Shown: piece after piece, positions 10,801 to 24,911 of the stretch
How positions within the stretch are numbered: position 1 is the stretch's first letter
Layout: each line of letters begins with the position of its first letter
Origin: an uncultured Solirubrobacterales bacterium
GTDB taxonomy: Bacteria > Actinomycetota > Thermoleophilia > Solirubrobacterales > Solirubrobacteraceae
Length of the DNA stretch: 64,000 nt
Reading direction: 5' to 3'
Assembly: GCA_963773165.1 (NCBI GenBank)
Contig: CAVZAK010000036.1
Location: 16,080 to 80,079, forward strand
Made by a program: the position numbers and the translations under genes
The notes under the pieces: model-generated
What the model was told of the DNA's origin: nothing
Database searches by the model: none
The model's input: the letters and a program-made list of their open reading frames with translations, nothing else

Positions 10801-11727
10801 CTGGCGGCCGGTGATGTCCGAGCTGACGGCGTGGGGCTCGAACACGGTCGTGCTCGCGTCGCACTGCGTGCGCGGCGTGATCGACGAGTAGCCAGGCGAG
10901 AACGCAGGGGCTCCGGTCGGAAGCTGCAGGGACGCGGTGATGAACACATTGGTGTTGAGCGTGTTGGTGAGCAGCCGAACATTCTTGACCGGTACCAGCA
11001 GGTCGAACACAAGACCAAGCGCCCTCTGCAGCACACCGTGCTGTCCGATGAACGTCAGCGCCTTGTGGAAGTCGATATCCGGCACCACGGGCACGGCCTG
11101 CTCCCCCGCGGGCGGCAGGTGGTAGTACGCCTGCGCAGCGAACGACTCGGCAGGGCTTGCGCCTGAGAAGTCGTTCGCATGTGGGATGGTGCCGCCCTTC
11201 GACCGAGCCTTGCGGTCGTTCGCCAGTTTCTGCATTTGATCCTGAGCGGTGACGCCGACGAGCACGTCGGCGATGGGTCCGTAGACGCTCTTGAGCGTGT
11301 CGAGCGTGGGGACCTCGCTCGGTGAGTACTGGGTGTACTGGTTCTGGAGGAACCCAGTGACCTGCTGGACCGGATAGGACGCGATCGCGAGGTTCCTGAA
11401 CCTGTCCTGGATTGGTTCAGGCGGTCCATATTCGACACTTGTGGGGAAGAGCGCCGTCCACAGTGAGGAGTTCAGGCCGGAGGTGTCGAGCGCGACGGCG
11501 ATCGTCTGCGTGAACGTGCTGCCGAACGTGATGAGCCATTCCAGGCCATCTGCGGCCAGTGTCGACAGTGTCGACGGCCAGTCCTGCCAGTCGGAGAAAT
11601 CGGACAGCGTTCCGGTCGCGCCGCCGCTCAGCTCCGGCGAGATGAGGACCGACAGCTGGAGATTGGTGCCGCCCGAGTCGAGGCCGTTCGGCACGGCGGT
11701 CCACTTGATCGTCTGTGTCGGTGCCAA
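7840..11727 (-). CDS. large uncharacterised protein (1295 aa), no signal peptide
   Basis: true start TTG 11727 with AGGAGA RBS overlapping the upstream stop (ORF track overextends to 12072); MAPTQTIKWTAVPNG...LQLSVLISPEL; LPPLRFGHTYQLRARIVD; RMALARYQP. Confidence 0.8.
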   Translation of the reverse strand: MAPTQTIKWTAVPNGLDSGGTNLQLSVLISPELSGGATGTLSDFSDWQDWPSTLSTLAADGLEWLITFGSTFTQTIAVALDTSGLNSSLWTALFPTSVEYGPPEPIQDRFRNLAIASYPVQQVTGFLQNQYTQYSPSEVPTLDTLKSVYGPIADVLVGVTAQDQMQKLANDRKARSKGGTIPHANDFSGASPAESFAAQAYYHLPPAGEQAVPVVPDIDFHKALTFIGQHGVLQRALGLVFDLLVPVKNVRLLTNTLNTNVFITASLQLPTGAPAFSPGYSSITPRTQCDASTTVFEPHAVSSDITGRQLTVGDPTSFLAHVIDFDGAGLRASNFATQIRLTESPAAIHPRYIAAAVAPAPTTPMTPPMIRSNGLTLTQVNRGVTFASSLIRSFLLYDAVVNSNPVPDLTAEDLVRGYVLDVFDAANNTWRSTAEWLCTYKAGSQTLSGPSSAPFSESSTQAPPRVQNSPTDPNSQQANVSEVLLRYNGWSNAVPRPGRVIQDADSQVTSPNPIPFSQLAITVAPPPGRLPPLRFGHTYQLRARIVDVCNNAQPVDTTTSNSQQATAPMVYGRHEPIGSPDVYGQSILRLAESLKRLVIRDVDGAADSLRALAPQRCAEPFAEWHSMFDNGSGGAINGNMATYNEIVNRESAQYPDPPTDPTAAPTVIPLATPVPYLPDPLARGGVLTITDGTLGGQTVPFDFSPASGDNWPDYRPYGLKLVPGTNPPQNAVQAVNVDTTNRLITFTLTKGDTVILNLCSTCDTADIPLFGLSSWFNQFDAAAAASGQYWSITPAVQVELVYAVQQPLLTPEFPNLPTPPRAAGDTFAPLEGDLTYSPKSTSTIDLLASWGDPVDDPIHNLPVQGPGAPNPNLRPTTNSPVATVPSATNPLANAGSQLYTATDRFSARHEFYDTKHRNVTYHGVATSQFSEFYAPGTNVTKATAHPVLVDIPSSARPDTPKVAYVVPIYDWQLTQPNSKTTVSERSPSALRVFIDRPWWSSGIDELLGVVTWPGAEAGPVIPILRARARSANGVRRQRAIGGGGGINSAIPSDEAEFVTDWGADPVFGSSALPSLHPRVSTFSNATESGFGLSIEENAGISVNVAGHPVLFDATRNLWYCDIAINTGATYTPMVRMALARYQPNSVSGVELSRIVLADIMSLEPGRTATVVRKGAHELSSVSLSGFSYSAAAAARNVAPGQAELIIERRVPAIQDQTLGWEQFGQPIKMNAGRAVGGVTTWVARNVKLPSNGSVRLCINQYEVLPTDNRRATRGFYTLAQRGRELRLLYQDLIPL

Positions 11728-11735
11728 GGTCTCTC

Positions 11736-14700
11736 CTATGCGGCGAACGCCTGGCAGTAGGACTGCCAGTCCGGGAAGGCCATCTGGTCGGCGAACGTCG
11801 GTGGCGTCGTCGCCAGCGCGTGGCCGTGGCGCCCTGCGTTCAAGCTGACCGACGAGGAGCCGTTGCCGTTGTTGGTGAACGTCTTGGTCGCGGTGGCGCT
11901 GACCGAGAAGTGGAAGAACAGAATCGAGATCGAGATCGTCACCGTCGCGGTCCCGGTTACCGACGACGGTGGTTCCTCGTAGGTGAGGCTCAGGTCGAAC
12001 TCCAGCGACATCTGGATGATCCCGAGGATGCTCAGCGAGCCCGTGAGCTTCACGTAGCCGGTCAGGATGCACGTGTTCTTTCCGGTGCTCGGATCCAGGT
12101 CGTAGGTGAACTGGAACCCGGCGGTCAGGCTGACGGACCCCGAAGCCACGCCCAGGTTGATCGCGGCCATCGCGCCGAAGTCGAAACCGGCGTCGATCTC
12201 GTGGACCCCGTCGGTGCCGATCTTGATCCCGAAGTAACCACCGCCGCCGAAGATCGCCAGCGCCAGCTGGAACGGGTTGTCCCGGGTCGAGAACCCGAAG
12301 CCGAACACGGCGGGGGTCCCGTCGAACGGCAGCATGAAGTTCGCGTCGATGCCCACGTGCGAGAGCTGGAAAAGCCCGACGGCGATCGTCGGAAGCTGGA
12401 CGTCGAGGTCGGCGCTAATGCCCGTCGGAAGGAGCTGGATCTTCGGACCGCCACCGCCGGTGGCAAAGCTCATGAACTCCTCGAGCTGCTGCACGAACTT
12501 CAGCGGCCCGACGAACCCAACGCCATGGATGTCGACGGTGACGTCGGCCTTCTGCCCGGTGGCCGAGCTGAACGTCAACGAGTTGAACGTGACCTGGATG
12601 AACTGATCCGTGTCGGTGCTCATCAGGTTCACGATGAAGTTGGTGAGCTTGCCCTGGATCGTGAACTTCGAGTTGCTCGGATTGGCGAGGTCGGTCGTGA
12701 TCGTCGCGTCGAGCATGAAGGCCGTCGTCGTCCCACCGCCCCGTGGGGTGACGATCGGGTTGTTGGTGACGATGTCGGGCTTCCACGTCACGCTCGTCGT
12801 CACGACGGTCCCGCTCGTGGTGTAGGTGATCCTCAGCGCCTTCGCGTTCGGGATCTCGGGCGTGCCGCCATCGAGGAACGACGCCACCGGAGCGATCAGC
12901 TCTGACAGAGGAACGCCGCCGAGGATCCGGGCCTGGAGGTCATCGCTCAAGCCGGCGAAGACCGAGTTGGGGTCAAATGTGCCGTGGAAGATGTTGTCGA
13001 GATCGGCGACTGGGCCGAGGCTCCGCGATATGCCCTGGAGCTGGAGGTTCGGCGTCAGCACGCCACCGGAGCTGCCGTTGCCGAACGACAGGTTGGTGGC
13101 GTTGCTCGCGTTGAACAGGATCTCCATGTAGACGTTGCCGGCGTTGCCGGTTGGCTGCTGCGACGTGCTGAAGCCGGTCGTGATGTACGGCGGGTAGTAG
13201 GCGACCGCGGGCGATGGATTCCCTTTGAGCGGTGCGCCGCCGCTCGCCTGCTCTGCCGAAGCCAGCCGCACCACGGCCTGCGCGCCGGTGTCCTGGCCGT
13301 TGATCGACGGGGTTAGCGTCGGATAGCACTGAGCCTGGTCGTTGTCCTGGAACTGGGTCGTCGATCCACCGGCTCCCGGGCTGGCGCCGAACGACATCGA
13401 CTTGACCTGAAGGTCGGTGTCCCCAAGCGTCACCGACTGCGCGAACGCGATCGTCTGACCGCCGAACGACGCCAGGCGCACCGGGTCAGTCGAAGCGAGG
13501 CCGTTGTAGTGGTTCCGGACGATCGCCGCCGGCAGGCCGTTCGTGGCGTCCTCGTAGGCGACGAACACAGCCTCGGCGTTGAACGAGATGTCCCGGCCGA
13601 CCCAATCCGTGCCGACGAAATGCCACTTGAACGGAACCCCCGTTACGGTCGGCACATAAGGCGCGGCCGTGAAGAAGAACGACGCGTTCGATCCCAGCGC
13701 CGGGTTGAGGAAGTTGACCGCCGGGTCGAGGTCGGGCGTGCGCAGGGTGTTCAGCGTCAGGCTCCGGAACGGGAAGTCGCGGCTGTTGTTGGCGATCCCG
13801 AACGTCTCGGCGGGGTCGTAGCTGAGCGTCGGCTCGCGCACGACGAGATAGACGATCTGCCGCGACGTGGCCACGATCTCGCCGTTCAGCTCCTCGAACT
13901 GGCGCTCGGTCACGGTGACCTGCACGACGTGGTGGCCGAACGGGAACAGGAAGCCCTTGTTGACGACCTTCACGTATTGGTCGCGGCCGAGCGTCGCCAG
14001 GTGCTTCCACTCGACGAGCGACAGCGTCGGGTCGTCCCACACGGCATCTGAGTCGAGGAACCCCCCGCGCGATGTCAGCCACAACTTCTTCGCGGCGATG
14101 TCGGCCCGACCGGCGAGCGCGAAGTCGCTCGTCAACTTGACGATCTGATAGCGATCGTTTGGGGTGAGGGAGGTCCGGAACGGACCGAGCGCGCTCTCCG
14201 GCGGCCCCCCGCCCTTCAGCGTCGGCGGTCCTGGTGACGCGAACGTACGCGTTTGCGTGTCGAAGTTCCAGATCGCCCGGAGCGAGCCGCCGTCACCGGA
14301 ATTGGGGTTCGCGCTCTTCGCCAGTCTCGTGCGCCACAGCTCGGTCGACCCGTTGGCCGTGATGGGGTCGGTTGGATGGGTCCACTGCGATCCGGCCACG
14401 GGCGATATGGCCAGGTGCCACGGGAGCTCGATCGAGGTCTCCGTCGGTTCGGGCGCGCGGATCACCGGGGGATGGCCGAAGCCGAAGATCACGAGCGGCG
14501 GGGCCGGCCCGACCCTGGACACGGGCGAGATCCCTCCGGCACGCGACTCGTGTGCGTGCCTCCGAAGGTCGTGTTCCAGCCGTTCTCGCCGGTCGCGGGA
14601 GAGAAGATGAAGGAGGCTCGGCGGTGGTACGTACGCCGCCGCCGGCGTCAGGGCAAGCTCGAGTGGCGACCAGTTCAGCAGCCCGGCCACCGTGAACGGG

Positions 14701-15284
14701 ATCGAATGGACGCTCGCAGGCAGGTTGAAGGCGATCCGCGAGGGTTGCGCCAGCAGTGCGTTCGTAGATCCCGGCGACGCCGGGGTTTCGTTCCCCGGGC
14801 CGGAGTTGGTCTTGGTCTCGAAGTAAGCCTGCTCGGTCAGATGCTGGGGGACGAACGTGAACACGATCGTCGCCTTCCCCGGCCTCTTGCGGACCAGCTT
14901 CTGGCCCTTGCGAACGAGGTTGTAGCCGTCGACCTGCAGGAACAACATGTCCTCGCGCCGGCGCATCATCACCGTGATCGTCGGCGCGACCGGCGCCGTG
15001 ACCTGCAGCAACGGCGTGCCGAGCAGGGAGCGCGGGGCGACGGCAGACGGATTCCGAAGGAACGCCGCATGGGCCAGGTAGTCGACGGCCGCGGCGCCCG
15101 TGAGCGCTCCCGCTCCGGCGATGAACGCCCGGCGCGGGATGCCACGCCCGTTCGCAGTCGGTTCAGTCAGGCCACCGGCGCCCTCAGCGTTGGGGACGGG
15201 ATCGCCGCCGTTGCCTTTGGGCAGCGGTTCGTTGCCCTCTGCGGGAGCTTCCTCTCCAGCCGATCGATCCAACGGTCCCTCCAA
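11736..15284 (-). CDS. large uncharacterised beta-rich protein (1182 aa) with twin-arginine (Tat) signal
   Basis: AGGAGG upstream of TTG; IPRRAFIAGAGALTGAAA; amphipathic beta-strand-rich C-terminus ending WQSYCQAFAA. Confidence 0.8.
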   Translation of the reverse strand: MEGPLDRSAGEEAPAEGNEPLPKGNGGDPVPNAEGAGGLTEPTANGRGIPRRAFIAGAGALTGAAAVDYLAHAAFLRNPSAVAPRSLLGTPLLQVTAPVAPTITVMMRRREDMLFLQVDGYNLVRKGQKLVRKRPGKATIVFTFVPQHLTEQAYFETKTNSGPGNETPASPGSTNALLAQPSRIAFNLPASVHSIPFTVAGLLNWSPLELALTPAAAYVPPPSLLHLLSRDRRERLEHDLRRHAHESRAGGISPVSRVGPAPPLVIFGFGHPPVIRAPEPTETSIELPWHLAISPVAGSQWTHPTDPITANGSTELWRTRLAKSANPNSGDGGSLRAIWNFDTQTRTFASPGPPTLKGGGPPESALGPFRTSLTPNDRYQIVKLTSDFALAGRADIAAKKLWLTSRGGFLDSDAVWDDPTLSLVEWKHLATLGRDQYVKVVNKGFLFPFGHHVVQVTVTERQFEELNGEIVATSRQIVYLVVREPTLSYDPAETFGIANNSRDFPFRSLTLNTLRTPDLDPAVNFLNPALGSNASFFFTAAPYVPTVTGVPFKWHFVGTDWVGRDISFNAEAVFVAYEDATNGLPAAIVRNHYNGLASTDPVRLASFGGQTIAFAQSVTLGDTDLQVKSMSFGASPGAGGSTTQFQDNDQAQCYPTLTPSINGQDTGAQAVVRLASAEQASGGAPLKGNPSPAVAYYPPYITTGFSTSQQPTGNAGNVYMEILFNASNATNLSFGNGSSGGVLTPNLQLQGISRSLGPVADLDNIFHGTFDPNSVFAGLSDDLQARILGGVPLSELIAPVASFLDGGTPEIPNAKALRITYTTSGTVVTTSVTWKPDIVTNNPIVTPRGGGTTTAFMLDATITTDLANPSNSKFTIQGKLTNFIVNLMSTDTDQFIQVTFNSLTFSSATGQKADVTVDIHGVGFVGPLKFVQQLEEFMSFATGGGGPKIQLLPTGISADLDVQLPTIAVGLFQLSHVGIDANFMLPFDGTPAVFGFGFSTRDNPFQLALAIFGGGGYFGIKIGTDGVHEIDAGFDFGAMAAINLGVASGSVSLTAGFQFTYDLDPSTGKNTCILTGYVKLTGSLSILGIIQMSLEFDLSLTYEEPPSSVTGTATVTISISILFFHFSVSATATKTFTNNGNGSSSVSLNAGRHGHALATTPPTFADQMAFPDWQSYCQAFAA

Positions 15285-16088: not shown

Positions 16089-16496
16089 TTAGGAAGACAC
16101 GACTGCGTTGCCACCCCGCTCGATCATGACCGAGGTCGCCTTCACGACCGCCGTCGCCCCCACGCCGGCGGCCAGTCCGAGCTCCTCGACCGAGTCTCGC
16201 GTGATCGCGGCCGTGATCAGGAACGGTCCGGCCTCCAGCTCGACGAGCGCCATCACCCCGTCGGACTCGACCGAGCGGACCACCCCGGTGAAGCGGTTGC
16301 GCGCCGAGCGCTCGGTTCCGGTTCGGTGGCGCACAGGGCGTTGGCTGAGTCTCACGATCTCGGAAACGGGAACCAGCCGGCGGTTGCGCGCGTCGCGCTT
16401 AGTCTGAATCTGACCCTTACGATCCCAGCGCCGCAGCGTGTCGATGCTGACTCCGAGCGCGGAGGCCGCCTCACCGAGCGAAAGGTCACCTGCCAT
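16089..16496 (-). CDS. MerR/excisionase-like HTH + TOBE domain regulator (molybdate/tungstate-sensing type)
   Basis: EAASALGVSIDTLRRWDRKG HTH; TOBE motifs SARN, ITRDS, VKATSV. Confidence 0.88.
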   Translation of the reverse strand: MAGDLSLGEAASALGVSIDTLRRWDRKGQIQTKRDARNRRLVPVSEIVRLSQRPVRHRTGTERSARNRFTGVVRSVESDGVMALVELEAGPFLITAAITRDSVEELGLAAGVGATAVVKATSVMIERGGNAVVSS

Positions 16497-16523: not shown

Positions 16524-17036
16524 TCAAGCGGTCGTCGCGCCAGGGGTCCCGCAGGCCCGCAGGCCATAGCCGGTGGCGAGTGACGCCGCCGGACTGGCGC
16601 GTAACGCGGCCTCGGCGTTCGTCACGGCCTGGCGGTCGTTCTGCTTCGCCGCGGCGGCGAGCTTGCGGTAGTTCTCCACCTCCTGGCCCAGGGCCTCGAA
16701 GTACTGCGCGAGCGCCGCCTTATCCCGCGCGTCCTCAGGCGGGGCGTTGAGCGCGCGCAGCTGCGTCACTTCGCCCTGCACGATCGGCAGCACAGCCGCC
16801 ACGTACTGGTCCAGCGCGGTCGACGGGGAGAGCGATCGCGTCTGGCGCAGAGCCGAGGCGCAGATCGCGTCCGCGCGGGCGATGAAGTCGCTCTTCGTGT
16901 AGGTGCTCCCACACCCGACGATCAGTGCGGCCGTCAGGAGCGCGGAACCGAGCACAGCCAGGCGGCGAGACCGCGGCGGCGTGATCTCGGCACCCAGGCT
17001 GCGCTCACAACCGCCCTTCTGCACCGGCCCAAACAT
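16524..17036 (-). CDS. hypothetical lipoprotein
   Basis: lipobox LIVGC followed by FIARADAIC and a helical domain; start uncertain. Confidence 0.65.
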   Translation of the reverse strand: MFGPVQKGGCERSLGAEITPPRSRRLAVLGSALLTAALIVGCGSTYTKSDFIARADAICASALRQTRSLSPSTALDQYVAAVLPIVQGEVTQLRALNAPPEDARDKAALAQYFEALGQEVENYRKLAAAAKQNDRQAVTNAEAALRASPAASLATGYGLRACGTPGATTA

Positions 17037-17133: not shown

Positions 17134-17164
17134 CTATGCATTGCCTATGCACCGGCTCTATGCT
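17134..17164 (+). promoter_or_regulatory. three CTATGC direct repeats overlapping a TATGCT -10 box
   Basis: CTATGC at 17134, 17145 and 17158; TATGCT at 17159-17164 lies six nt before ATG 17171. Confidence 0.5.
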
Positions 17165-17170
17165 GCGCCG

Positions 17171-19243
17171 ATGATTGAGATACCTGTCGTTCCCTATCCA
17201 TCCCTGCGCCGGGGCGGGGAACGCCTTCGTTTCGGCACTGGGCAAAGGCTTTGCACCGCACCTCTTCTCGGGCTATTGGCGGCGGTAGCGCTCCTGTTGA
17301 TGCCCGCCCTCGCTAACGCCGACAGCTCGTCGACCCTTACGGTCGTCGGCACGAGCGACGTTAGTGACTCCGGCCTGGTCGCCAACCTGATCCAGAAGGA
17401 CTTCCACCAGGCCTATCCGCAGTACACGTTCAAATACATCCCCGGCGCCACCGGCACCGCGATCACCCAGGCCGAGAGCGGCTCACAGGGAGCCAGCGCT
17501 CTGATCGTCCACTCGGCGACGCTCGAGAACCAGTTCGTGGCCAAGGGCTATTCCTACGAGCGGTACGGCCGCGCGATCTTCACGAACGACTTCGTGCTGG
17601 GCGGGCCGAAGGGCGATCCTGCGGGCGTCGCGGCGAACGGACCCCACAACATCGCCCAGGCGTTCGCCGACATCGCCGCAGCTGGCATCAACGGCGGTGG
17701 CACGCCGAAGGCAACGCTGGTCTCGCGGGGCGGTACGCCAGGGACCACCGTCGAGGAGCACAAGATCTGGGGTCTGGTCAGCAGCGCCCACCTCGCTCCG
17801 GCGGGACTGCTGCTCTGCACCGTTAACTCGACGGACGGCGGCGGCGAGACGCCCATCGCCGCAGGTCAGGGCGTCACGGCCTCGGGCCAGGCATGCCCGA
17901 ACGGTGGCGCGCTCCCGACCGGCGGCGCTTTGCCGAAGTGGTACATCGTTACCGGTGCCCAGCAGGGCGCGAACGTCCAGCTGGCCAACACCTGCGCCGG
18001 CTACCCGAGCGGCGCCAACACGTGCTACGTCCTAACCGACCGAGGCACGTACGACTACCTCGCGTCGGGAACCGATCCGGCCGGCAGCATCCCGAACCTG
18101 CAGATTGTGACCAGGGACGACGCCACATCGGCCCCCGGGGGTCAGTACGGGCTGATCAACTACTTCCACGCGTACATCATCAACCCGGCGATGCCGAACG
18201 AGCAGATCAACCTGCCCGCGGCGAAAGATCTGCTCAACCTGCTGACTTCGCCCGCGTTCCAGTCACAGCTGGCGGGGTATCTCGCCCACACCAGCGACCC
18301 CAGTGGCGCTCCGTTCAAGGCGGACGCGTCCCCAATCATCACCGAGCACGGACTTCCCCGCTCAGCCAAGGCGGGACGCCGAGTGACGGTCACAGGCACA
18401 GTGACGAACGCCGAGCCCGGTTATCCGGCTCTCTCGGGCAAAACGGTCTCGGTCGACGAGATCGTGGGTGGGGTTCCGGTGCCCGTCGCCAGCGGGACGA
18501 CTAACGCGACTGGCGCCTACACGATCAGCTTCCGGCCGACGTCGAGTGGTTCCTATGAGGTCGGAACTCCTCAGATCGCTCAGATCGAGGTGCCGACGAT
18601 CACGCCCGTGTTCGGGGACCTCCTCTCGCCCGGGGCGACTGCACCTGTCAAGGTGGCCGTCCACAGCGCGATCGCCAAGCTCACCGTGAAGTCGGTCGGT
18701 GGCAAAGCGCTGGTGGTCGGGTCGGTCACTCCCGCCAAGGGGCACGTTAAGGCGTCCGTCACGGTCCTGGCCCGCCTGGCAGGATCCAAGGGCCGCTTCA
18801 AGCGCGTCGCGACCGCGCGCCTGAGGTCGAGCGCCGGCAACTTCGCCGTCGCCGTCCCGCTGCGCGCCGGCCACTGGCAGCTCGAGGTGACGTTCAAGGA
18901 TCCGAAGGAGGTCGTCGCGACCTCGCGAAAGGTGAAGGTGACCGTCGGCGGCAAGCCCGCCACGAGCGTCACGCTCAGATCGGCGAAGGTCGAGCACGGG
19001 ACGCTGTCGATGAGCGGGAGCGTCAGTTCGGCGGCCGGAGGCAAGGTCGAGGCGCTCGCGCTCAACACGACCGGAGGCGCGGCGCGCTTCAAGGTTCTCG
19101 GAACGGCGAAGCTGGGCCCGCATGACACCAAGTTCTCGTTCCACGGGAAACTGAGGAGCGGGACGTGGGTGCTGGCCGTCGAGTACGTGCCGAACGGGCA
19201 ACCACCGAGCGTCTCGCAACTGAGGACGTCCACCGTACGCTAA
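17171..19243 (+). CDS. divergent TupA-like (tungstate/molybdate PBP2) substrate-binding protein with C-terminal Ig-like basic domains
   Basis: signal peptide PALANA-DSS (no lipobox); DSGL, VHS..LE.QFV, NDFVLGGP.GDPAGV, SRG..GT, LTDRGT, N.....INP; about 270 aa beta-rich Lys/Arg C-terminal extension. Confidence 0.8.
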   Translation: MIEIPVVPYPSLRRGGERLRFGTGQRLCTAPLLGLLAAVALLLMPALANADSSSTLTVVGTSDVSDSGLVANLIQKDFHQAYPQYTFKYIPGATGTAITQAESGSQGASALIVHSATLENQFVAKGYSYERYGRAIFTNDFVLGGPKGDPAGVAANGPHNIAQAFADIAAAGINGGGTPKATLVSRGGTPGTTVEEHKIWGLVSSAHLAPAGLLLCTVNSTDGGGETPIAAGQGVTASGQACPNGGALPTGGALPKWYIVTGAQQGANVQLANTCAGYPSGANTCYVLTDRGTYDYLASGTDPAGSIPNLQIVTRDDATSAPGGQYGLINYFHAYIINPAMPNEQINLPAAKDLLNLLTSPAFQSQLAGYLAHTSDPSGAPFKADASPIITEHGLPRSAKAGRRVTVTGTVTNAEPGYPALSGKTVSVDEIVGGVPVPVASGTTNATGAYTISFRPTSSGSYEVGTPQIAQIEVPTITPVFGDLLSPGATAPVKVAVHSAIAKLTVKSVGGKALVVGSVTPAKGHVKASVTVLARLAGSKGRFKRVATARLRSSAGNFAVAVPLRAGHWQLEVTFKDPKEVVATSRKVKVTVGGKPATSVTLRSAKVEHGTLSMSGSVSSAAGGKVEALALNTTGGAARFKVLGTAKLGPHDTKFSFHGKLRSGTWVLAVEYVPNGQPPSVSQLRTSTVR

Positions 19244-19251
19244 CGGGCGCG

Positions 19252-20679
19252 ATGGACCGGCGAACCGACTTCGGCCAACAGCGATGGTCGGCCAACCGCC
19301 GCCCCGGGGGAATCCTGGGGCGGCGGTTCGCGTTGGCGCTCGGGCTCGCCTTCTTCGCCTTCGCCAGCGGGGTAGCGGCGGCCGATCAGACCGTCGTCAG
19401 CGCCACCGTCTATCCGTCGAGGGGTGGCAGCGTCACCACCCCGGCGGCCACGCTTTCAGGCTTGAACAACTGCCAGCAGTATCCGACAGAGCAGTCGGGG
19501 TGGAGCCCGCTCACGCTGTACCCGTCGGGGCAGCCCTATCAGCCGGCGCAGGGGGCCTCTTGGCAGCTCTCGACGGTGCTCACCTGCGGCATGAACGTCC
19601 CCTTGAACAACGTCACGGGCGTGCAGGTGTACAGCCCGCGCTACGGCTTCGAGGCGCCACTCACGAACGCCGAGCTGACCGATGCGACCCAGTTCCACGA
19701 TCCGGCGGCGCCCGATGCGCTGCCTGTCATCTCCAACGACGAAGGTCAGAACACCTACGTCCGCCCGTGGCTCGGAGGTGGCGATCAAAACGCCAAGGAC
19801 CAGGTGGTGCAGGACGGCTCGCCCGTGACGATCGTCGTCTACGAGAACGGTGCCGAGCTGACGGTCGTCGCTTCCGCCAGCAAGGTGTCAAAGAGCTCGA
19901 AGCACAAGAAGGTCCGCTTCAGCGCCACCGTCCGCGCCCAGTCGGGTTCGACGGTCCCCACCTCGGCACTCGCCTGGAGCTGGAACTTCGGGGATGGCGG
20001 AACGTCCCGCAGCCAGACCCCGGAACACTCCTTCGTGGCCGGGAAGTTCCCGGTCACGGTTCAGGTCACCGATCGCAAGACGGGTGCGGGCGGTACCGAC
20101 ACGATCGACGTGAACGCTGGCAACCCCGGTGGGAACGGAAACAGTCCGACCGGCCCGAACAACAGCATTGGCAGCCATCCCGGTGGATCTGCCGGTAGAC
20201 CCAACAACTCGGCCAACACCGGCAAAAGTCACTCCGGCAAAGACACGACCACAAGCGGGCAGAACAATCAAACGACCACCACTTCCACGGAGGGCTCAGG
20301 CGGTACGACCGGCACGGGCACCGCCGCGGGCACGACGACAGCGTCCGTCGCTCCGAACCCCACGCCCGCCTCACCGAACCCGACCCCTAGCTCGGCGACG
20401 CACCCCCCCGCACGCGTGAACAAGCCGCCCGCCGCCACCGGCCCACTCGTGACCGGACGACTGATCAGTGACGTGACCCCGCTACCCGCAAACGACAGCC
20501 CGCTGGTTAAGCTCGCGCAGGGGCCGCCGGCGACGGCGCCCGCGATCCAGCGTGCGAACAGCGCGTCGTTAGTACCTGCCCTGGCAGCCGGGTTCGTGGT
20601 CCTCCTGCTCTTGGGGCTGGGCGCGGGCAACGAGCTGCGCGGCCGTCGCGACTGGCGGACGCTTCTGTTCCGTAGCTGA
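19252..20679 (+). CDS. surface-anchored PKD-domain protein
   Basis: signal peptide, two-Cys N-domain, PKD motif WSWNFGDG, Ser/Thr/Pro/Gly linker, C-terminal TM plus basic tail; start moved to ATG 19252. Confidence 0.78.
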   Translation: MDRRTDFGQQRWSANRRPGGILGRRFALALGLAFFAFASGVAAADQTVVSATVYPSRGGSVTTPAATLSGLNNCQQYPTEQSGWSPLTLYPSGQPYQPAQGASWQLSTVLTCGMNVPLNNVTGVQVYSPRYGFEAPLTNAELTDATQFHDPAAPDALPVISNDEGQNTYVRPWLGGGDQNAKDQVVQDGSPVTIVVYENGAELTVVASASKVSKSSKHKKVRFSATVRAQSGSTVPTSALAWSWNFGDGGTSRSQTPEHSFVAGKFPVTVQVTDRKTGAGGTDTIDVNAGNPGGNGNSPTGPNNSIGSHPGGSAGRPNNSANTGKSHSGKDTTTSGQNNQTTTTSTEGSGGTTGTGTAAGTTTASVAPNPTPASPNPTPSSATHPPARVNKPPAATGPLVTGRLISDVTPLPANDSPLVKLAQGPPATAPAIQRANSASLVPALAAGFVVLLLLGLGAGNELRGRRDWRTLLFRS

Positions 20680-20702
20680 TTTCCTCGGCCACGAGAATCG
20701 AC

Positions 20703-21479
20703 GTGCTTTTGATCTTCGCCCTGACCAGCCACGACATCGACGAGGTGATCTTCCACGTCGCCAACGTGCTGCTGGTGCCCGTGCTGATCCTCGCCCTGCT
20801 CGCGCTGGCGCTGGTGATCTTCGAGCTCGGCCGGTTCGTGATTGAGCTGCGCGGGCGTCGAGGGCGACGGTTCGACACCCTGTCGCGGAGTACGGACAGC
20901 GCTCGGGCTGCGCTGTTCAAAGGCGACCGCGCGGGCGCGGAGGCGGCTGTCAGCGGGCTCGCCCAGAGTCCCGCCATGGCATCGACACTGTCGTTCATCG
21001 TCGAACACGCGCGGACTCCTGGAGACGATCACGAGCTCAACAAGGCGCTCGCGGATTTCGACTTCGACTCTCAACGCCGTCTCGGGCGGACGCGCCTGCT
21101 GGTCCGCGCCGGACCGGCGCTGGGCCTGATGGGCACGCTGATTCCACTGTCGCCCGCGCTGACCGGCCTGGCCAGCGGCAACACCGCCGCGCTCAGCCAG
21201 AACCTGCGCGTGGCCTTCAGCGTGACGGTCGTCGGGCTGATGATCGGCGCCGTCGCCTACGGGCTCTCGCTCTCGCGCGACCGCCTGTACGGCCAGGACC
21301 TCTCCGACCTCCAGTACGTGGCCGCCGTCCTCACCGATCCGACGCTGCCTCCGCCGAAAGAGCCGGCGCCGGTGCCGGAAGTCAAGCCCACCGAACCCGC
21401 GCCGCAGGCCGACGACGCGCCGGCGCCACCGACCGAGCCGGCACCGACCCCTGCCCCCACACAAGGAACGACGACATGA
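20703..21479 (+). CDS. MotA/TolQ/ExbB proton channel family protein
   Basis: GPALGLMGTLIPLSPAL...NLRVAFSVTVVGL. Confidence 0.88.
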   Translation: MLLIFALTSHDIDEVIFHVANVLLVPVLILALLALALVIFELGRFVIELRGRRGRRFDTLSRSTDSARAALFKGDRAGAEAAVSGLAQSPAMASTLSFIVEHARTPGDDHELNKALADFDFDSQRRLGRTRLLVRAGPALGLMGTLIPLSPALTGLASGNTAALSQNLRVAFSVTVVGLMIGAVAYGLSLSRDRLYGQDLSDLQYVAAVLTDPTLPPPKEPAPVPEVKPTEPAPQADDAPAPPTEPAPTPAPTQGTTT

Positions 21480-21811
21480 TCTCCGTCACCCCGCAAGCCA
21501 ACAGCCGCCAGGACCGCTCCGGCGATCCGCTCGACGGCCTTGTCAACCTGTTCGACCTCGGGATCGTCCTGTCGGTCGCGTTCCTGCTCGCGGCGCTCTC
21601 ATCGCTGCACCTGGGCGGCGCCATCACCAGCCACGGGCTCCACGCAACCACGGCCCGGGTCATCCAGGTTAAGCCCGGCCAGACCGTCGCGCCGCTGCCG
21701 AAGCCCGGCGCCCGCACGATCGGTCGAGGCACGCAGGTCGGGACGGTCTACCGCCTGGCCAACGGCGAGCTCGTCTACGTTCAGCAGCCGCCGCGTTCGA
21801 CGACTCCCTGA
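21476..21811 (+). CDS. DUF2149 protein (ExbD/MotB-like partner)
   Basis: DPLDGLVNLFDLGIVLSVAFL with intramembrane Asp; G..VGTVYRLANGELVYV; 4-bp overlap with the MotA gene. Confidence 0.85.
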   Translation: MISVTPQANSRQDRSGDPLDGLVNLFDLGIVLSVAFLLAALSSLHLGGAITSHGLHATTARVIQVKPGQTVAPLPKPGARTIGRGTQVGTVYRLANGELVYVQQPPRSTTP

Positions 21812-22533
21812 TGGGCTACCTCTGGCACGAGTTCCGGACCGCGATCCCGCTGATCTGGAACGGAAACTCCTACATCCTCAGCGTCCTCTGGGTAACGATC
21901 CGCGTCGCGATCATCTCGACACTTAGCGCCCTGGTGATCGGCCTACCGATCGGGCTCGCCATCGGCCTTGGGCGGTTCCGCGGACGGCGGGCGCTGCACA
22001 TCCTCGCGAACGCGAGCCTCGCACTGCCGCCGGTGCTGGTCGGCGTGTGGGTCCTGATCGTGCTGCTCCCCCAGAGCGCGTTTGGGTCGCTGGGCATCGC
22101 GTTCACGCTCCGCGGCGTCTACGTCGCTCAGACGATCCTCGCCCTCCCCTACATCGTCGCGCTCGTCCCGGCCGCGATCCAGGGCCTGCCCCCCGGACTC
22201 CTCGATCAGGCGCGGTTCTTCGGTGCGGGGCGGATCCAGCTCTCGCTGCTGGCACTGCGCGAAGCGAAAATCGGCGTCCTGGTCGCCGTGATCGCCGCGG
22301 TCGGCTCGACGCTCTCCGAGGTCGCCGCGATCATCATCGTCGGCGGCAATGTCCAGAACTACGACCAGACGCTGGCGAGCGCGATCGTTCAGCAGATCAA
22401 CGACTACGCCAACTACACCTACGCGCTGGCGATCGGGATCGTGTTGATGCTCCTGATTCTCATCCTGGCCGCGATCCTCACCGTGCTCCAGCAGCGAACG
22501 AGCGGCATTCACCTCCGCTTCCGGACGGCCTGA
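21811..22533 (+). CDS. ABC transporter permease, TupB-like (copy 1)
   Basis: NASLALPPVLVG, AQTILALPYI, SEVAAIIIVGGN...TLASAI. Confidence 0.85.
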   Translation: MGYLWHEFRTAIPLIWNGNSYILSVLWVTIRVAIISTLSALVIGLPIGLAIGLGRFRGRRALHILANASLALPPVLVGVWVLIVLLPQSAFGSLGIAFTLRGVYVAQTILALPYIVALVPAAIQGLPPGLLDQARFFGAGRIQLSLLALREAKIGVLVAVIAAVGSTLSEVAAIIIVGGNVQNYDQTLASAIVQQINDYANYTYALAIGIVLMLLILILAAILTVLQQRTSGIHLRFRTA

Positions 22534-22534
22534 G

Positions 22535-23257
22535 ATGCGGCTGCTGTGGGAGGAGTTCAAGGCCGCCGTGCCGCTGATCACGCACGGGAATCCCTACCTG
22601 GTGAGCGTCATCTCGTTCACGCTTCAGGTCGCCGCCGTCGCCACCTTGATCGCAACGTTCTTCGGAGTCCCACTTGGCTTGGCGATCGGACTCGAGCGGT
22701 TCCGCGGCCGCCGCGCGCTGCAGACGCTGGCCAACGCAAGCCTCGGACTACCCCCTGTGCTCGTCGGACTCTTCCTGTTCTTCCTGTTCGTCCCACAGGG
22801 CCCGCTGGGCTCGCTGCACCTGACGGTGACCAGACGGGCCGTGTTCATCGCCCAGACCGTGCTCGCCCTCCCCTACGTCGTCGCGCTTACAGCGGCCGCG
22901 GTCCAGGGTCTCCCCACCGGGCTCGCTGCGCAGGCACGACTGCTGGGAGCGCGGCGCCGTCAGCTGTGGCTGCTCGCGCTGCGCGAAGCGAGGGTCGGAG
23001 TGATGGCCGGGATCATCGCGGCACTCGGAGCCACGCTGTCCGAGGTCGGCGCGATCGTGATCGTCGGAGGCAACGTCTACGGCTACGACCAAACTCTCGC
23101 CAGCGCGGTGCTGTTCGAGGCCAACGCCGCCCGCTACGCAGACGCGATCGCGCTCGGGATCGTGCTGATCGGGATGATCCTCGTGCTGATGGGCGGAGTG
23201 AGCTTGCTTCAGCTGCGGGGCACCGGGATCCGGATGCGCTTCCGGCCGACGTCGTGA
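22535..23257 (+). CDS. ABC transporter permease, TupB-like (copy 2)
   Basis: paralogue of the preceding gene: NASLGLPPVLVG, SEVGAIVIVGGN. Confidence 0.85.
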   Translation: MRLLWEEFKAAVPLITHGNPYLVSVISFTLQVAAVATLIATFFGVPLGLAIGLERFRGRRALQTLANASLGLPPVLVGLFLFFLFVPQGPLGSLHLTVTRRAVFIAQTVLALPYVVALTAAAVQGLPTGLAAQARLLGARRRQLWLLALREARVGVMAGIIAALGATLSEVGAIVIVGGNVYGYDQTLASAVLFEANAARYADAIALGIVLIGMILVLMGGVSLLQLRGTGIRMRFRPTS

Positions 23258-24219
23258 GCGACCGACCTGCGGCACGGCAGGCTCTGTTGCGCTGCGAGCA
23301 CCTGAGCGTCCGAAGGGGCGATCGGGAAGTCGTGCGCGACGTGAGCCTGGAGCTCCGCGCGGGCGAGCTCGTCGCGCTGCTCGGCCCGAACGGCGCCGGC
23401 AAGAGCACCCTGCTGGACGCGCTCGGGGGAGCTCTACCGCCGGCACAGGGTCGAATCGACCGCAACGGCCGGGTCGCGATCGCCCTCCAGTCCCCCGACC
23501 TGGCTCGTCGCTCGGTCCTCACCAACGTGACGCTGGCGCTGGCGTGGTGGGGTGTCCCGCGCGCCGGCCGAGCCGAGCGAGCCCGCGAGGCGCTGCGGAC
23601 GATGGGAGTCGAGCACCTGGCGCCGCGACCGGCCGGGAGCCTGTCGGGCGGCGAACGGCGCCGGGTTCACCTGGCGCGGACACTCGCGGTGCGTCCCGAC
23701 ATCCTGATGCTCGACGAGCCGTTCGCCGGTCTCGACGCCGAGACGCGGGCGAACCTGCTCGAAGACGCTGTGTCCACCCTGCGGTCGAGCACGCGGGCGA
23801 CGCTCGTCGTCGTCCACGACCGGTCCGAGGCGTGGGCGCTGGCCGACCGCCTCCTGATTCTGATCGGTGGCGAGCTCGTCGCAGCGGGACCGCCGCGCCA
23901 ACTGCTCGACCATCCCCCGAGCCCGCTGGTCGCGCGGTTCCTCGGCTTCGACGGTTCGCTCGAGGAGGACGGCCAGCTGCTGCTCACGAGACCGCCGCAC
24001 GTCGCGCTCGATCCCTCCGGCCCCTTGTGCGCACGCGTGAGGCGCGCGATCGCACTCGAGGACGGCGTACGCCTCGAGCTCGAGCTCGACCATGGGCGGC
24101 TCTACACGATCGCGCCGCTCCCTTCCCCACGCGTCGGAGACACGGTCCGCGTCCGTGTCGATGCCGGCGCTCGGTTCCCGCTCACCCAGTCGCCGAGCGC
24201 CGTCACCTCGCCTTCGTAG
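23254..24219 (+). CDS. ABC transporter ATP-binding protein, TupC-like, with C-terminal TOBE-like extension
   Basis: GTG 23254 overlaps the upstream TGA; GPNGAGKS, LSGGE, LMLDEPF, VVHD. Confidence 0.88.
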   Translation: MSDRPAARQALLRCEHLSVRRGDREVVRDVSLELRAGELVALLGPNGAGKSTLLDALGGALPPAQGRIDRNGRVAIALQSPDLARRSVLTNVTLALAWWGVPRAGRAERAREALRTMGVEHLAPRPAGSLSGGERRRVHLARTLAVRPDILMLDEPFAGLDAETRANLLEDAVSTLRSSTRATLVVVHDRSEAWALADRLLILIGGELVAAGPPRQLLDHPPSPLVARFLGFDGSLEEDGQLLLTRPPHVALDPSGPLCARVRRAIALEDGVRLELELDHGRLYTIAPLPSPRVGDTVRVRVDAGARFPLTQSPSAVTSPS

Positions 24220-24290
24220 CCCGGCCCGGGAAGGTGCGGGCGGCCGTCGGCGTCATACGAGAGAGCGTTCACGATTCGAAGGGGAGCCAG

Positions 24291-24911
24291 ATGCACCGTC
24301 CGATGAGGGTTTTTTCTGCGCACGGCCGTCGCTCAGCGTTACTGCTCGTGGCAGCAGTTGCCGGCTTCGGGACGGCCGCGCTCGTGGGCGTCGCCTTCGC
24401 GAAGACGTTCACGCTGCAGATAGCGAACAACGCCAAGGTCGGTGCAGCGTCCCACGGCAACATCGTGGTGAACTCCCGCGGCCAGGCCGTTTACTACCTG
24501 ACCGGGGACGCCAAACGCCATCCCAAGTGCACGAAGAAAAACGGGTGCTTCAAGTTCTGGCCGCCAGTGACGGTGTCCTCGGCAAAGAAGCTGAGCAAGG
24601 TGCGTGGGATCAAGGGCAAGCTCGGCGTCTGGCACCGGAACGGGTTCTTCCAGGTCACGATCGACGGTCACCCGCTGTACACGTTCGCCTTCGATCACCA
24701 AAAGCGCGTCGCGACCGGTGAGGGCGTCATGGGTTTCAACGGCACTTGGCACGTGAGGACCGCCTCGGGGGCTGTCGTGCGGAGCTCGAGCGGGGGCACG
24801 CCGAGCGCCCCGACGACGACCACGATGCCGTCCACGACCACCAACCCCGGGACGACGACGACCATGCCGACGACGACCACGGTGCCGTGTCTGTATCCGC
24901 CCTGCTATTAG
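24291..24911 (+). CDS. secreted protein with Yx(FWY)xxD repeats (COG4315-like)
   Basis: AGGGGAG RBS; signal peptide; GQAVYYLTGD...C...WPP and QVTIDGHPLYTFAFD...G.G....WHV; Thr/Pro tail ending CLYPPCY. Confidence 0.8.
   Translation: MHRPMRVFSAHGRRSALLLVAAVAGFGTAALVGVAFAKTFTLQIANNAKVGAASHGNIVVNSRGQAVYYLTGDAKRHPKCTKKNGCFKFWPPVTVSSAKKLSKVRGIKGKLGVWHRNGFFQVTIDGHPLYTFAFDHQKRVATGEGVMGFNGTWHVRTASGAVVRSSSGGTPSAPTTTTMPSTTTNPGTTTTMPTTTTVPCLYPPCY

Follow-up and report, generated by a model that had tools for sequence, protein, structure and literature searches.

A 64,000-nt stretch of DNA from an uncultured Solirubrobacterales bacterium (CAVZAK010000036.1, positions 16,080-80,079, forward strand; hereafter the window) carries an operon of seven plus-strand genes, at 17171-24219, that encode in order a substrate-binding protein (SBP), a protein with a PKD domain, a MotA/ExbB-family membrane protein (hereafter MotA), a DUF2149 protein, and two permeases and an ATPase of an ATP-binding cassette (ABC) importer. 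We find that the real unit within this operon is a triad composed of the PKD protein, MotA and DUF2149, and that the triad is portable, accompanying at least two cargo systems, Tup-type and haem-type, and also standing alone. The most economical reading of the whole is a hybrid uptake system that draws on both the proton-motive force (PMF) and ATP. More specifically, we give an even chance to the proposal that the triad is a TonB-like PMF transducer that acts on a wall-exposed receptor, with the ligand being delivered to the ABC permease, and are less sure of its exact target.

Constraint within the operon is strongest on MotA and DUF2149

The seven genes are as tightly packed as a preliminary description of this DNA had it, co-oriented with gaps of -4 to 23 bp. 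In gene order the junctions measure 8, 23, -4 (ATGA), -1 (TGATG), +1 and -4 nt, MotA running into DUF2149 through the ATGA overlap and DUF2149 into permease 1 through the TGATG. All seven open reading frames (ORFs) show coding-type G+C at the third codon position (GC3, 0.81-0.86) in a window of 65-70% G+C, and their domains were assigned with Pfam and NCBIfam profiles against curated cutoffs (Table 1). Neither TonB, a TonB-dependent receptor nor CobN is encoded in the operon or its flanks (~7.8-29.6 kb of the window, ~9 kb on each side), in agreement with the preliminary description, which had seen no TonB, outer-membrane receptor or chelatase here; a DUF2162/HmuT-like protein is likewise absent from the operon and flanks.

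Purifying selection is strong on the pair that had been singled out as a proton motor, the genes of which sit between those of the SBP and the permeases. In pairwise comparisons of the window with seven relatives (Nei-Gojobori method, NG86; dS ~0.5-1.1), the ratio of nonsynonymous to synonymous substitution rates (dN/dS) was 0.09-0.23 for MotA and 0.09-0.21 for DUF2149, equal to or below that of the permeases and ATPase (0.18-0.26), while the SBP gave 0.22-0.43 and the PKD protein 0.35-0.67.

MotA matches PF01618 at aa 109-185, a domain that its relatives also carry in precomputed annotation, and has an ExbB-like layout of a first transmembrane (TM) helix, an Arg-rich cytoplasmic loop, a second helix carrying GPALGLMGTLIPL, and a third helix. 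TM1 and TM3 are placed by hydropathy; TM2 falls under the hydropathy threshold and is placed by an alignment in which GPALGLMGTLIPL, invariant in homologues, lies opposite PAFGMVGTLIGL of solved MotA chains. Across 21 homologues 96 columns are invariant, GPALGLMGTLIPLSPALTGLA among them. A Pro/Ala/Thr/Glu-rich tail of ~45 residues at aa 210-258 (21330-21476), predicted to be cytoplasmic, is highly variable in length, with homologues totalling 218-306 aa.

DUF2149 is an N-in single-pass protein. The intramembrane aspartate that the preliminary description had picked out in its NLFD motif is Asp27 (codon 21554-21556), which lies inside the TM helix and is invariant in 26 sequences; the segment D17-L46 is almost wholly invariant, and 56 columns are invariant overall. 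We treat DUF2149 as a likely analogue of ExbD, TolR and MotB, claiming no homology, with a small, predicted beta-rich extracytoplasmic domain. It matches neither PF02472 nor OmpA, and has been recorded as 'linked to TolQ' (PMC9425974).

The gene set is conserved across two classes of Actinomycetota

When GTDB was scanned for DUF2149, with each species represented by a single genome, 80 loci were obtained, to which the window proteins were mapped by tblastn; the 68 loci with full flanks serve as the base for counts. The complete set (SBP with Ig-like tail, MotA, DUF2149, permease(s) and ATPase) is present in 59 of the 68, and the seven-gene arrangement is thus far beyond chance. Gene order in relatives had been named in the preliminary description as a check on the operon, and what the relatives hold is the whole set, kept as one conserved operon. 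The carriers are mostly Solirubrobacterales, with others among Nocardioides, Mycobacteriales, Frankiaceae and the cultured isolate Frondihabitans sp. PhB188, such that intact sets span two classes of Actinomycetota. MotA adjoins DUF2149 in every one of the 68 loci. Three loci have a different order: two (L024 and L031) read MotA-DUF2149-permeases-ATPase-lipoprotein-SBP-PKD and a third (L071) MotA-DUF2149-SBP-PKD-permeases-ATPase. A gene set that outlives rearrangement in this way is a classical mark of genes that are functionally linked. The permease gene is single in the Nocardioides, Frondihabitans and Mycobacteriales relatives and double in Solirubrobacterales. Independent NCBI gene calls on an Illumina metagenome-assembled genome (MAG) give the identical seven-gene order and the same precomputed Pfam domains, and clusters at 90% identity in soil metagenomes number more than 3,300 for MotA and 3,949 for DUF2149.

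Actinomycetota, Solirubrobacterales included, are a lineage without an outer membrane, and Nocardioides and Frondihabitans (Microbacteriaceae) are classical monoderms. Their presence among the carriers supports the earlier supposition of a probable monoderm host.

Frameshifts in GC-rich genes are common in the long-read MAGs of this clade (L011, L026, L036, L040, L066, L069 and L134), and they give rise to spurious fusions in public protein collections, such as apparent MotA-DUF2149 and DUF2149-permease proteins (library proteins P0365, P0450, P0475, P0482 and P0504); the contig of P0080 belongs to a frameshift-ridden nanopore MAG. Natural fusions were accordingly dropped as evidence for a complex, the long proteins being out-of-frame read-throughs in error-prone assemblies.

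A PKD protein with a conserved membrane anchor completes the triad

The PKD protein (475 aa) consists of a signal peptide, an N-domain (aa 45-205), a PKD_4 domain (aa 212-287), a disordered linker of ~150 aa rich in S, T, P, G and N (aa 293-440), and a C-terminal TM helix (aa 441-459). An AlphaFold2 model agrees with this layout, with predicted local distance difference test (pLDDT) scores >90 for aa 45-290 and <50 for the linker, and a helix at aa 441-459. When the ORF ending just 5' of MotA was extracted at every locus, the same architecture was found in Tup-type, haem-type and stand-alone loci, including seven that lack a Tup-like transporter (L054, L056, L067, L075, L076, L077 and L079). 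The N-domain is ~160 aa long across loci and carries two universally conserved motifs, (Y/F)-x-R-P and D-x-N-x-x-D. It has no match in Pfam or NCBIfam, nor do relaxed Pfam scans of five divergent N-domains find one; a resemblance to a molybdopterin-oxidoreductase domain was an impression only, was borne out by no search, and was dropped.

The best conserved segment of the operon outside the motor is the juxtamembrane/TM module of this protein. In the window protein the module comprises a juxtamembrane V-x-G-x-L-x-S-D-V...S-P-L (aa 398-418), the TM helix, and E-L-R-G-R-R (aa 461-466) at its cytoplasmic end; the corresponding consensus across loci is G-(R/Q)-L-(I/V)-S-D-V-x-P-L...S-P-L-V, with L-L-L-G-L-G-A-G-R-E-L-R-G-R-R at the end of the helix. 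In an alignment of 61 sequences with a mean column identity of 40%, near-invariant columns fall at V400, G402, L404, S406, D407, V408, S416, P417, L418, P430, L453, L456, G457, A458, E461, L462 and R465. In divergent orthologues this module is the only part of the protein still found by tblastn. Of the 77 upstream ORFs, 58-63 end in a hydrophobic tail, and those that do not come from frameshifted assemblies or from rearranged or pair-only loci.

The C-terminal 79 aa and an orthologous tail match none of the NCBIfam sorting-signal models (LPXTG, PEP-CTERM, PGF-CTERM and others) at E values up to 10, and the idea that the C-terminus is conserved as a sorting signal was dropped. At its cytoplasmic end, MotA TM1 (aa 40-53, 20820-20862) reads F-E-L-G-x-F-x-x-E-L-R-G-R-R, which resembles the end of the PKD helix, LGLGAGRELRGRR (aa 457-466, 20620-20649); the shared G...E-L-R-G-R-R is seen in both proteins across most loci, and may reflect either a common docking depth or the positive-inside rule.

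The triad is found with haem-type importers and alone

In two loci (L076 and L077) the triad lies 3' of genes for ABM (IsdG-like), Peripla_BP_2, FecCD, ATPase and HtaA-domain proteins; L076 (2218-9342) has two HtaA-domain proteins and also DUF2470. Loci of this type are Gram-positive haem-uptake operons. In two others (L073 and L079) the triad stands behind Peripla_BP_2-FecCD-ATPase. Haem-type sister loci occur in Solirubrobacterales and other actinobacteria, and those examined encode no TonB or TonB-dependent receptor.

The haem-type and Tup-type PKD proteins are 34% identical over 170 aa, which cover the latter half of the N-domain together with the PKD domain. A PKD family common to oxyanion and haem systems is unlikely to act as a substrate-specific receptor, and the protein is probably part of the motor module instead. 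The preliminary description had given it a part in capturing or releasing a metal anion or metallophore; a role as captor is made improbable by the presence of the same family in haem (HtaA/FecCD) loci and in loci without an ABC transporter. Five loci have no transporter nearby, three of them with the triad (L054, L056 and L067) and two with the pair only (L074 and L078).

Three further loci deserve mention. A triad-only locus (L075, 9992-15417) adjoins phoU and a pstS-type phosphate ABC operon; it is not co-oriented through phoU, and the proximity may be coincidence. PstS belongs to the PBP_like_2 superfamily, as does TupA. In an Actinomycetota bog MAG (L138, 1105-4430), the gene 5' of DUF2149, in the PKD position, encodes a 620-aa protein in which a prenyltransferase/squalene-cyclase-like toroid is combined with a Big_13 domain and a TM helix at the C-terminus. 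An energy-coupling factor (ECF) S-component-like gene lies near the locus of a Gaiellales genome (L137).

The importer and its candidate substrate

The SBP (690 aa) has a type I signal peptide (aa 1-50; A-x-A, then D-S-S-S-T-L) and is thus secreted and non-lipidated, followed by a binding domain (aa 53-360) and a tail of ~290 aa (aa ~400-690) made up of three Ig/transthyretin-like domains with a weak match to CarboxypepD_reg. Its only solved relatives are tungstate-binding proteins, namely 3LR1 (2.7e-11), 5MY5 and the TupA-like 3MUQ. The oxyanion site of Desulfovibrio alaskensis TupA features TTTS, His59, Arg118, Thr124 and Asp170 (PMC5517513), and the window SBP keeps equivalents of the His (L-I-V-H-S), Arg118 (V-S-R-G-G), Thr124 (P-G-T-T) and Asp170 (L-T-D-R-G-T-Y). 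It also carries large Cys-containing inserts. The binding protein of the preliminary description is therefore TupA-like, as claimed, but it is no plain TupA, being a fusion with an Ig-like tail.

The same holds for the operon as a whole, which had been called TupABC-like. At the level of the Tup family, and under a Mop/TOBE regulator, the label stands: the SBP is nearest to 3LR1 and 5MY5, and the permeases are nearest to TupB/ModB among named families and pass the generic NF038017 model. Below that level it does not, since scores lie far below the equivalog cutoffs (103.7 and 123.6 bits against 320 for the permeases with the TupB model NF041773), the TTTS of the binding site has become GTSD, the SBP has acquired inserts and an Ig tail and is not lipidated, Solirubrobacterales have two permease genes, and the operon has seven genes where TupABC has three.

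No lipobox is present in 57 of 60 SBP orthologues, in contrast to the adjoining lipoprotein with its normal lipobox, and a monoderm must retain such an SBP by other means. From this we infer two obvious candidates for the tether, the PKD protein and the SBP's own Ig-like tail. The TupA relatives, together with the adjoining MerR-Mop regulator (TIGR00638 Mop domain, 60.8 bits against a cutoff of 55), support a molybdenum/tungsten (Mo/W)-type oxyanion as the putative substrate, short of proof. A homologue of the regulator lies beside the cluster in 33 of the 68 loci, and it probably controls the operon. Three direct CTATGC repeats just 5' of the SBP start could serve as its operator, or as part of a promoter; a related element, TGCATATGCA-N5-CTATATGCTG, is found 5' of the SBP gene in many loci (L003, L004, L014, L030, L035, L037, L042 and others). 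Promoter and terminator scans found nothing beyond shuffled expectation.

MotA and DUF2149 outside the Actinomycetota

Distant DUF2149 proteins form 270 clusters at 50% identity in the representative library (E <= 0.001), and their loci lie in Proteobacteria, Acidobacteriota, Bacteroidota and archaea. The arrangement there is a DUF2162 polytopic protein of ~200 aa ('predicted transporter'), MotA and DUF2149, with a CobN-like protein of 1,300-1,650 aa adjoining. The preliminary description had correctly named hmuSTUV and CobN-like chelatases as the known contexts of the pair: CobN-like neighbours are what we see in the loci of all four groups, in the pattern of the Bacteroidota hmuSTUV genes. 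In comparison loci L105, L120, L128, L131 and L139, CobN-like and DUF2162/HmuT-like proteins both stand next to MotA-DUF2149, and the CobN-like proteins have a C-terminal TM helix with basic residues after it. In the Bacteroidota, MotA and DUF2149 are HmuU and HmuV of an iron-regulated haem uptake operon, hmuYRSTUV (PMC10434189, PMC11681262), in which HmuS is a periplasmic, membrane-associated dechelatase and HmuT, HmuU and HmuV are partners without an assigned role (PMC12583661, PMC12094164).

In Archaeoglobaceae a NikR gene adjoins the cluster: a MAG of this family (L139, 7789-15380) encodes NikR, DUF2162, MotA, DUF2149 and a CobN-like protein of 1,656 aa that has both a signal sequence and a TM helix at its C-terminus, which suggests that the archaeal CobN-like protein is a nickel-regulated extracellular client of the same motor pair. 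L131 is an archaeal CobN-type cluster from Hydrothermarchaeota. A genome scan with one distant DUF2149 (P0503) found no loci.

A proposed mechanism and its rivals

MotA/ExbB-type proton motors are understood as carriers of energy to the outer membrane or the flagellum. Proteins of the MotA/ExbB family surround a dimer of a single-pass partner, the membrane Asp of which is protonated in turn, and the resulting movement passes to a third protein (TonB or TolA) via its TM helix. In the triad all three roles are filled by candidates of the right topology, namely MotA, DUF2149 and the PKD protein.

We propose that the operon encodes two machines. The first would be a Tup-family oxyanion ABC importer made up of the secreted SBP-Ig fusion, a heterodimeric permease and the ATPase. 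The second, encoded between the SBP gene and the permease genes, would be the triad, in which MotA and DUF2149 may form a proton-driven, stator-type unit and the PKD protein may be its dedicated transducer, docking on the motor through its C-terminal TM/juxtamembrane module. At ~0.35 nm per residue, a linker of ~150 residues could extend up to ~50 nm, which would be enough to cross a Gram-positive wall. The N-domain/PKD head would then act on a wall-exposed receptor, which in the haem loci would be HtaA and in the window the SBP-Ig fusion. Driven by the PMF, this surface receptor would be retrieved, moved or stripped once loaded with ligand, such that the scarce ligand reaches the permease. 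Where TonB works on an outer-membrane receptor, the target in the window would be the binding protein of an ABC importer.

We also put forward, more tentatively and with rather less confidence than in the transducer itself, a wider proposal that takes in all of these loci. The triad would be a portable PMF transducer, a functional analogue of the Ton system, that serves both Mo/W and haem ABC importers in monoderm Actinomycetota by coupling the membrane potential to the transfer of ligand from receptors at the wall, and MotA-DUF2149 pairs everywhere would energise C-terminally anchored extracytoplasmic clients, with HmuU/HmuV of gut and oral Bacteroidota and the NikR-linked CobN clusters of archaea among them.

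Several observations weigh against a TonB-like transducer serving a Mo/W importer. It is not obvious which barrier in a monoderm would call for a force transducer, and canonical TupABC manages without such a device. The loci without a transporter indicate that uptake may not be the sole or primary role of the triad. At the level of individual proteins, the match of the SBP to the TupA equivalog model NF041772 (42 bits, cutoff 400) covers the first lobe only, and the replacement of TTTS by GTSD leaves four of the five binding-site features in place. The match of the MotA P-A-x-G-x-x-G-T helix to solved MotA/PomA chains is weak (E 0.2-0.6). A DUF2149 profile run against the PDB (hmmsearch, E up to 10) does not find ExbD, TolR or MotB, and its alignment to Escherichia coli ExbD (hhalign, approximate query) covers the TM segment only, with Asp27 opposite Asp25 and a probability of 3%; homology to ExbD/TolR/MotB was dropped on this account, the only PDB matches being spurious ones to designed WD-repeat proteins. 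The AlphaFold2 monomer of DUF2149, a helix at 18-52 and three short strands, is of low confidence (pLDDT 59). Foldseek comparison of the PKD protein model with the PDB yields generic Ig-like matches via the PKD domain and none for the N-domain. A search for sequencing runs containing the sequence found soil metagenome DNA runs only and no RNA runs. Finally, we infer rather than observe the complex and its stoichiometry, the use of protons, the contact between motor and anchor, the receptor target and the Mo/W substrate.

Of the rival explanations, the most durable is one that we nonetheless consider unlikely, in which the motor powers extracytoplasmic work carried out by the N-domain of the PKD protein itself, such as extraction of a metal or cofactor from a carrier, a mineral or a host protein. 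In detail, a PMF motor would take the place of the ATP-driven subunits that the extracytoplasmic CobN-type (de)chelatases of Bacteroidota and archaea lack, and the ABC importer would bring in the released product. That the pair always lies beside a CobN-like protein with a C-terminal TM helix in diderms and archaea speaks for this explanation, as do the dechelatase HmuS with its three partners of no assigned role, the C-terminally anchored toroid protein in the upstream gene position of L138, and the existence of triads without any ABC importer; moreover, the two N-domain motifs could form an active or binding site. What tells against it is that N-domains of one family occur with cargos as unlike in chemistry as an oxyanion and haem, which speaks against a substrate-specific chemistry, and that the N-domain shows no similarity to any enzyme or chelatase in Foldseek or relaxed Pfam searches. 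In addition, free molybdate and tungstate need no extraction.

Less probable again is a structural role, in which the triad holds non-lipidated receptors near the membrane or keeps a passage through the peptidoglycan open, and any ion flow is incidental or regulatory, for example by keeping the importer in step with the cellular energy state. An SBP without a lipid anchor, with Ig-like domains suited to protein-protein docking, would fit such a role, as would a PKD protein with adhesin-like domains and a wall-spanning linker, and stand-alone triads exist. However, a passive tether leaves unexplained why the strongest constraint falls on MotA and DUF2149, with their invariant membrane Asp, and would not require a channel-type partner encoded by two genes that are translationally coupled.

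We regard a conventional Ton-like system as very improbable. Here the hosts would have an outer barrier that has gone unrecognised, with the receptor encoded elsewhere; a mycomembrane is present in the Mycobacteriales, to which some carriers belong, and MotA/ExbB-family proteins normally serve outer-membrane processes (PMC12204202). Yet no locus examined has TonB, a TonB-dependent receptor or other outer-membrane genes in or near it, the cluster is intact in the classical monoderms Nocardioides and Frondihabitans, and the PKD protein has its anchor at the C-terminus and lacks the TonB C-terminal domain.

Strongly disfavoured, with next to no likelihood in our view, is the idea that the pair is a vestige, a decaying Ton leftover that survives by operon position, for although the incomplete Ton systems of Actinobacteria and other monoderms have been called 'likely non-functional' (PMC12204202), that view is contradicted by the constraint on the motor genes, whose dN/dS is the lowest in the operon, and by their 96 and 56 invariant columns, and decay is at odds with intact genes in 59 of 68 loci from two classes, thousands of 90%-identity clusters in soil metagenomes, and independent recruitment to haem operons.

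Relation to known systems

The proposed transducer resembles TonB-ExbB-ExbD and TolA-TolQ-TolR in its parts, comprising a polytopic MotA/ExbB-family protein, an Asp-bearing single-pass partner, and a third protein with a long linker and a distal head; as with TonB-ExbB-ExbD, their genes accompany those of a high-affinity system that takes up a metal nutrient in short supply. The differences are equally plain. The hosts have neither an outer membrane nor TonB-dependent receptors, and the genes lie inside an ABC importer operon. Whereas TonB has an N-terminal anchor, the PKD protein is anchored C-terminally (type I), and it has an unclassified N-domain and a PKD domain in place of a TonB C-terminal domain or SHLS-type motif. 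DUF2149, unlike ExbD and TolR, has a much smaller external domain and no detectable sequence homology to either.

With HmuT/U/V and the archaeal and proteobacterial DUF2162-MotA-DUF2149-CobN clusters, the operon shares adjacent PF01618 and PF09919 genes in the same order, a link to metal or tetrapyrrole acquisition, and an extracytoplasmic partner with a C-terminal TM helix. It differs from them in having neither a CobN-like chelatase nor a DUF2162/HmuT-like protein, in the PKD protein that stands 5' of MotA instead, in its ABC importer partner (Tup-like here, FecCD/HtaA in sister loci), and in its monoderm Actinomycetota hosts. The haem-type sister loci (L076 and L077) in turn resemble the corynebacterial HtaA/HtaB-HmuTUV system, a relay from surface receptor to ABC importer in a monoderm, in their HtaA-domain, Peripla_BP_2, FecCD and ATPase components; they differ in the appended triad, and the window itself carries the oxyanion and not the haem version. 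To our knowledge, the corynebacterial system as described has no MotA/DUF2149/PKD module.

An anti-phage role modelled on Zorya-like MotAB was dropped, the PKD protein, MotA and DUF2149 all lacking a match in PADLOC (ZorA/ZorB and other defence models).

The preliminary description did not recognise this architecture as described, and we found no description of it in the literature on DUF2149, COG4744/DUF2162, ExbB with TupA/tungstate, monoderm ExbB/ExbD, and HtaA with ExbB/MotA, in a search for which most subscription journals lay outside coverage. What is new is the PKD-MotA-DUF2149 triad as a unit, its embedding in monoderm ABC importer operons, and its recruitment to haem operons. The motor pair comes with a dedicated anchor protein and, in soil Actinomycetota that are abundant, ranks with the best conserved parts of an ABC importer operon. 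If the proposal is right, force transduction would extend to nutrient capture across the Gram-positive wall, HmuT/U/V of human-associated Bacteroidota and the archaeal CobN-linked pairs would gain a first handle, and the 5:2-type family of ion-driven motors would gain a tractable three-protein addition. It would also bear on how soil bacteria acquire molybdenum and tungsten at trace concentrations.

Features and neighbours of the operon

Table 1. Coordinates of the operon and adjoining features in the window
Feature	Position	Strand	Evidence or remark
Regulator with MerR-type helix-turn-helix and Mop/TOBE domain	16089..16496	-	Divergent; Pfam TOBE 1.4e-16, MerR 2.1e-10
Small helical lipoprotein, 170 aa, lipobox LIVGC	16524..17036	-	Co-conserved with the cluster
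Three direct CTATGC repeats (17134, 17145, 17158)	17134..17163	+	Just 5' of SBP start
SBP	17171..19243	+	PF12849 PBP_like_2, 40.7 bits
PKD protein	19252..20679	+	PKD_4, 40.6 bits
Conserved C-terminal module of PKD protein	20443..20649	+	61-sequence alignment
MotA/ExbB/TolQ-family membrane protein	20703..21479	+	PF01618, 31.7 bits vs 22.9
DUF2149	21476..21811	+	PF09919 (COG4744), 53.1 bits vs 27.1
Permease 1, TupB/ModB-like	21811..22533	+	BPD_transp_1, 52.5 bits; NF038017, 141.7 bits vs 100
Permease 2, TupB/ModB-like	22535..23257	+	BPD_transp_1, 56.2 bits; NF038017, 171.6 bits
ABC ATPase	23254..24219	+	ABC_tran, 99.7 bits; GTG start, 4-nt overlap with permease 2 stop

The ATPase has a C-terminal extension of ~90 aa without a family assignment. 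The lipoprotein gene upstream of the operon has no match in Pfam or NCBIfam searches; in 46 of the 68 loci a homologue is encoded no further than 6.5 kb from DUF2149, in varying position and orientation, and the lipoprotein may be an eighth component of the system. Directly 3' of the ATPase gene is a Lipoprotein_15/SCO0930-like secreted repeat protein (24276-24911, plus strand), which is not kept beside the cluster in relatives and probably lies outside the system. Further upstream, two overlapping and very large minus-strand ORFs (7840-12072 and 11736-15284; 1,410 and 1,182 aa) have no Pfam match. Both show coding-type GC3, and the second begins with an N-terminal, twin-arginine-like signal (RRAFIAGAGALTGAAAV).

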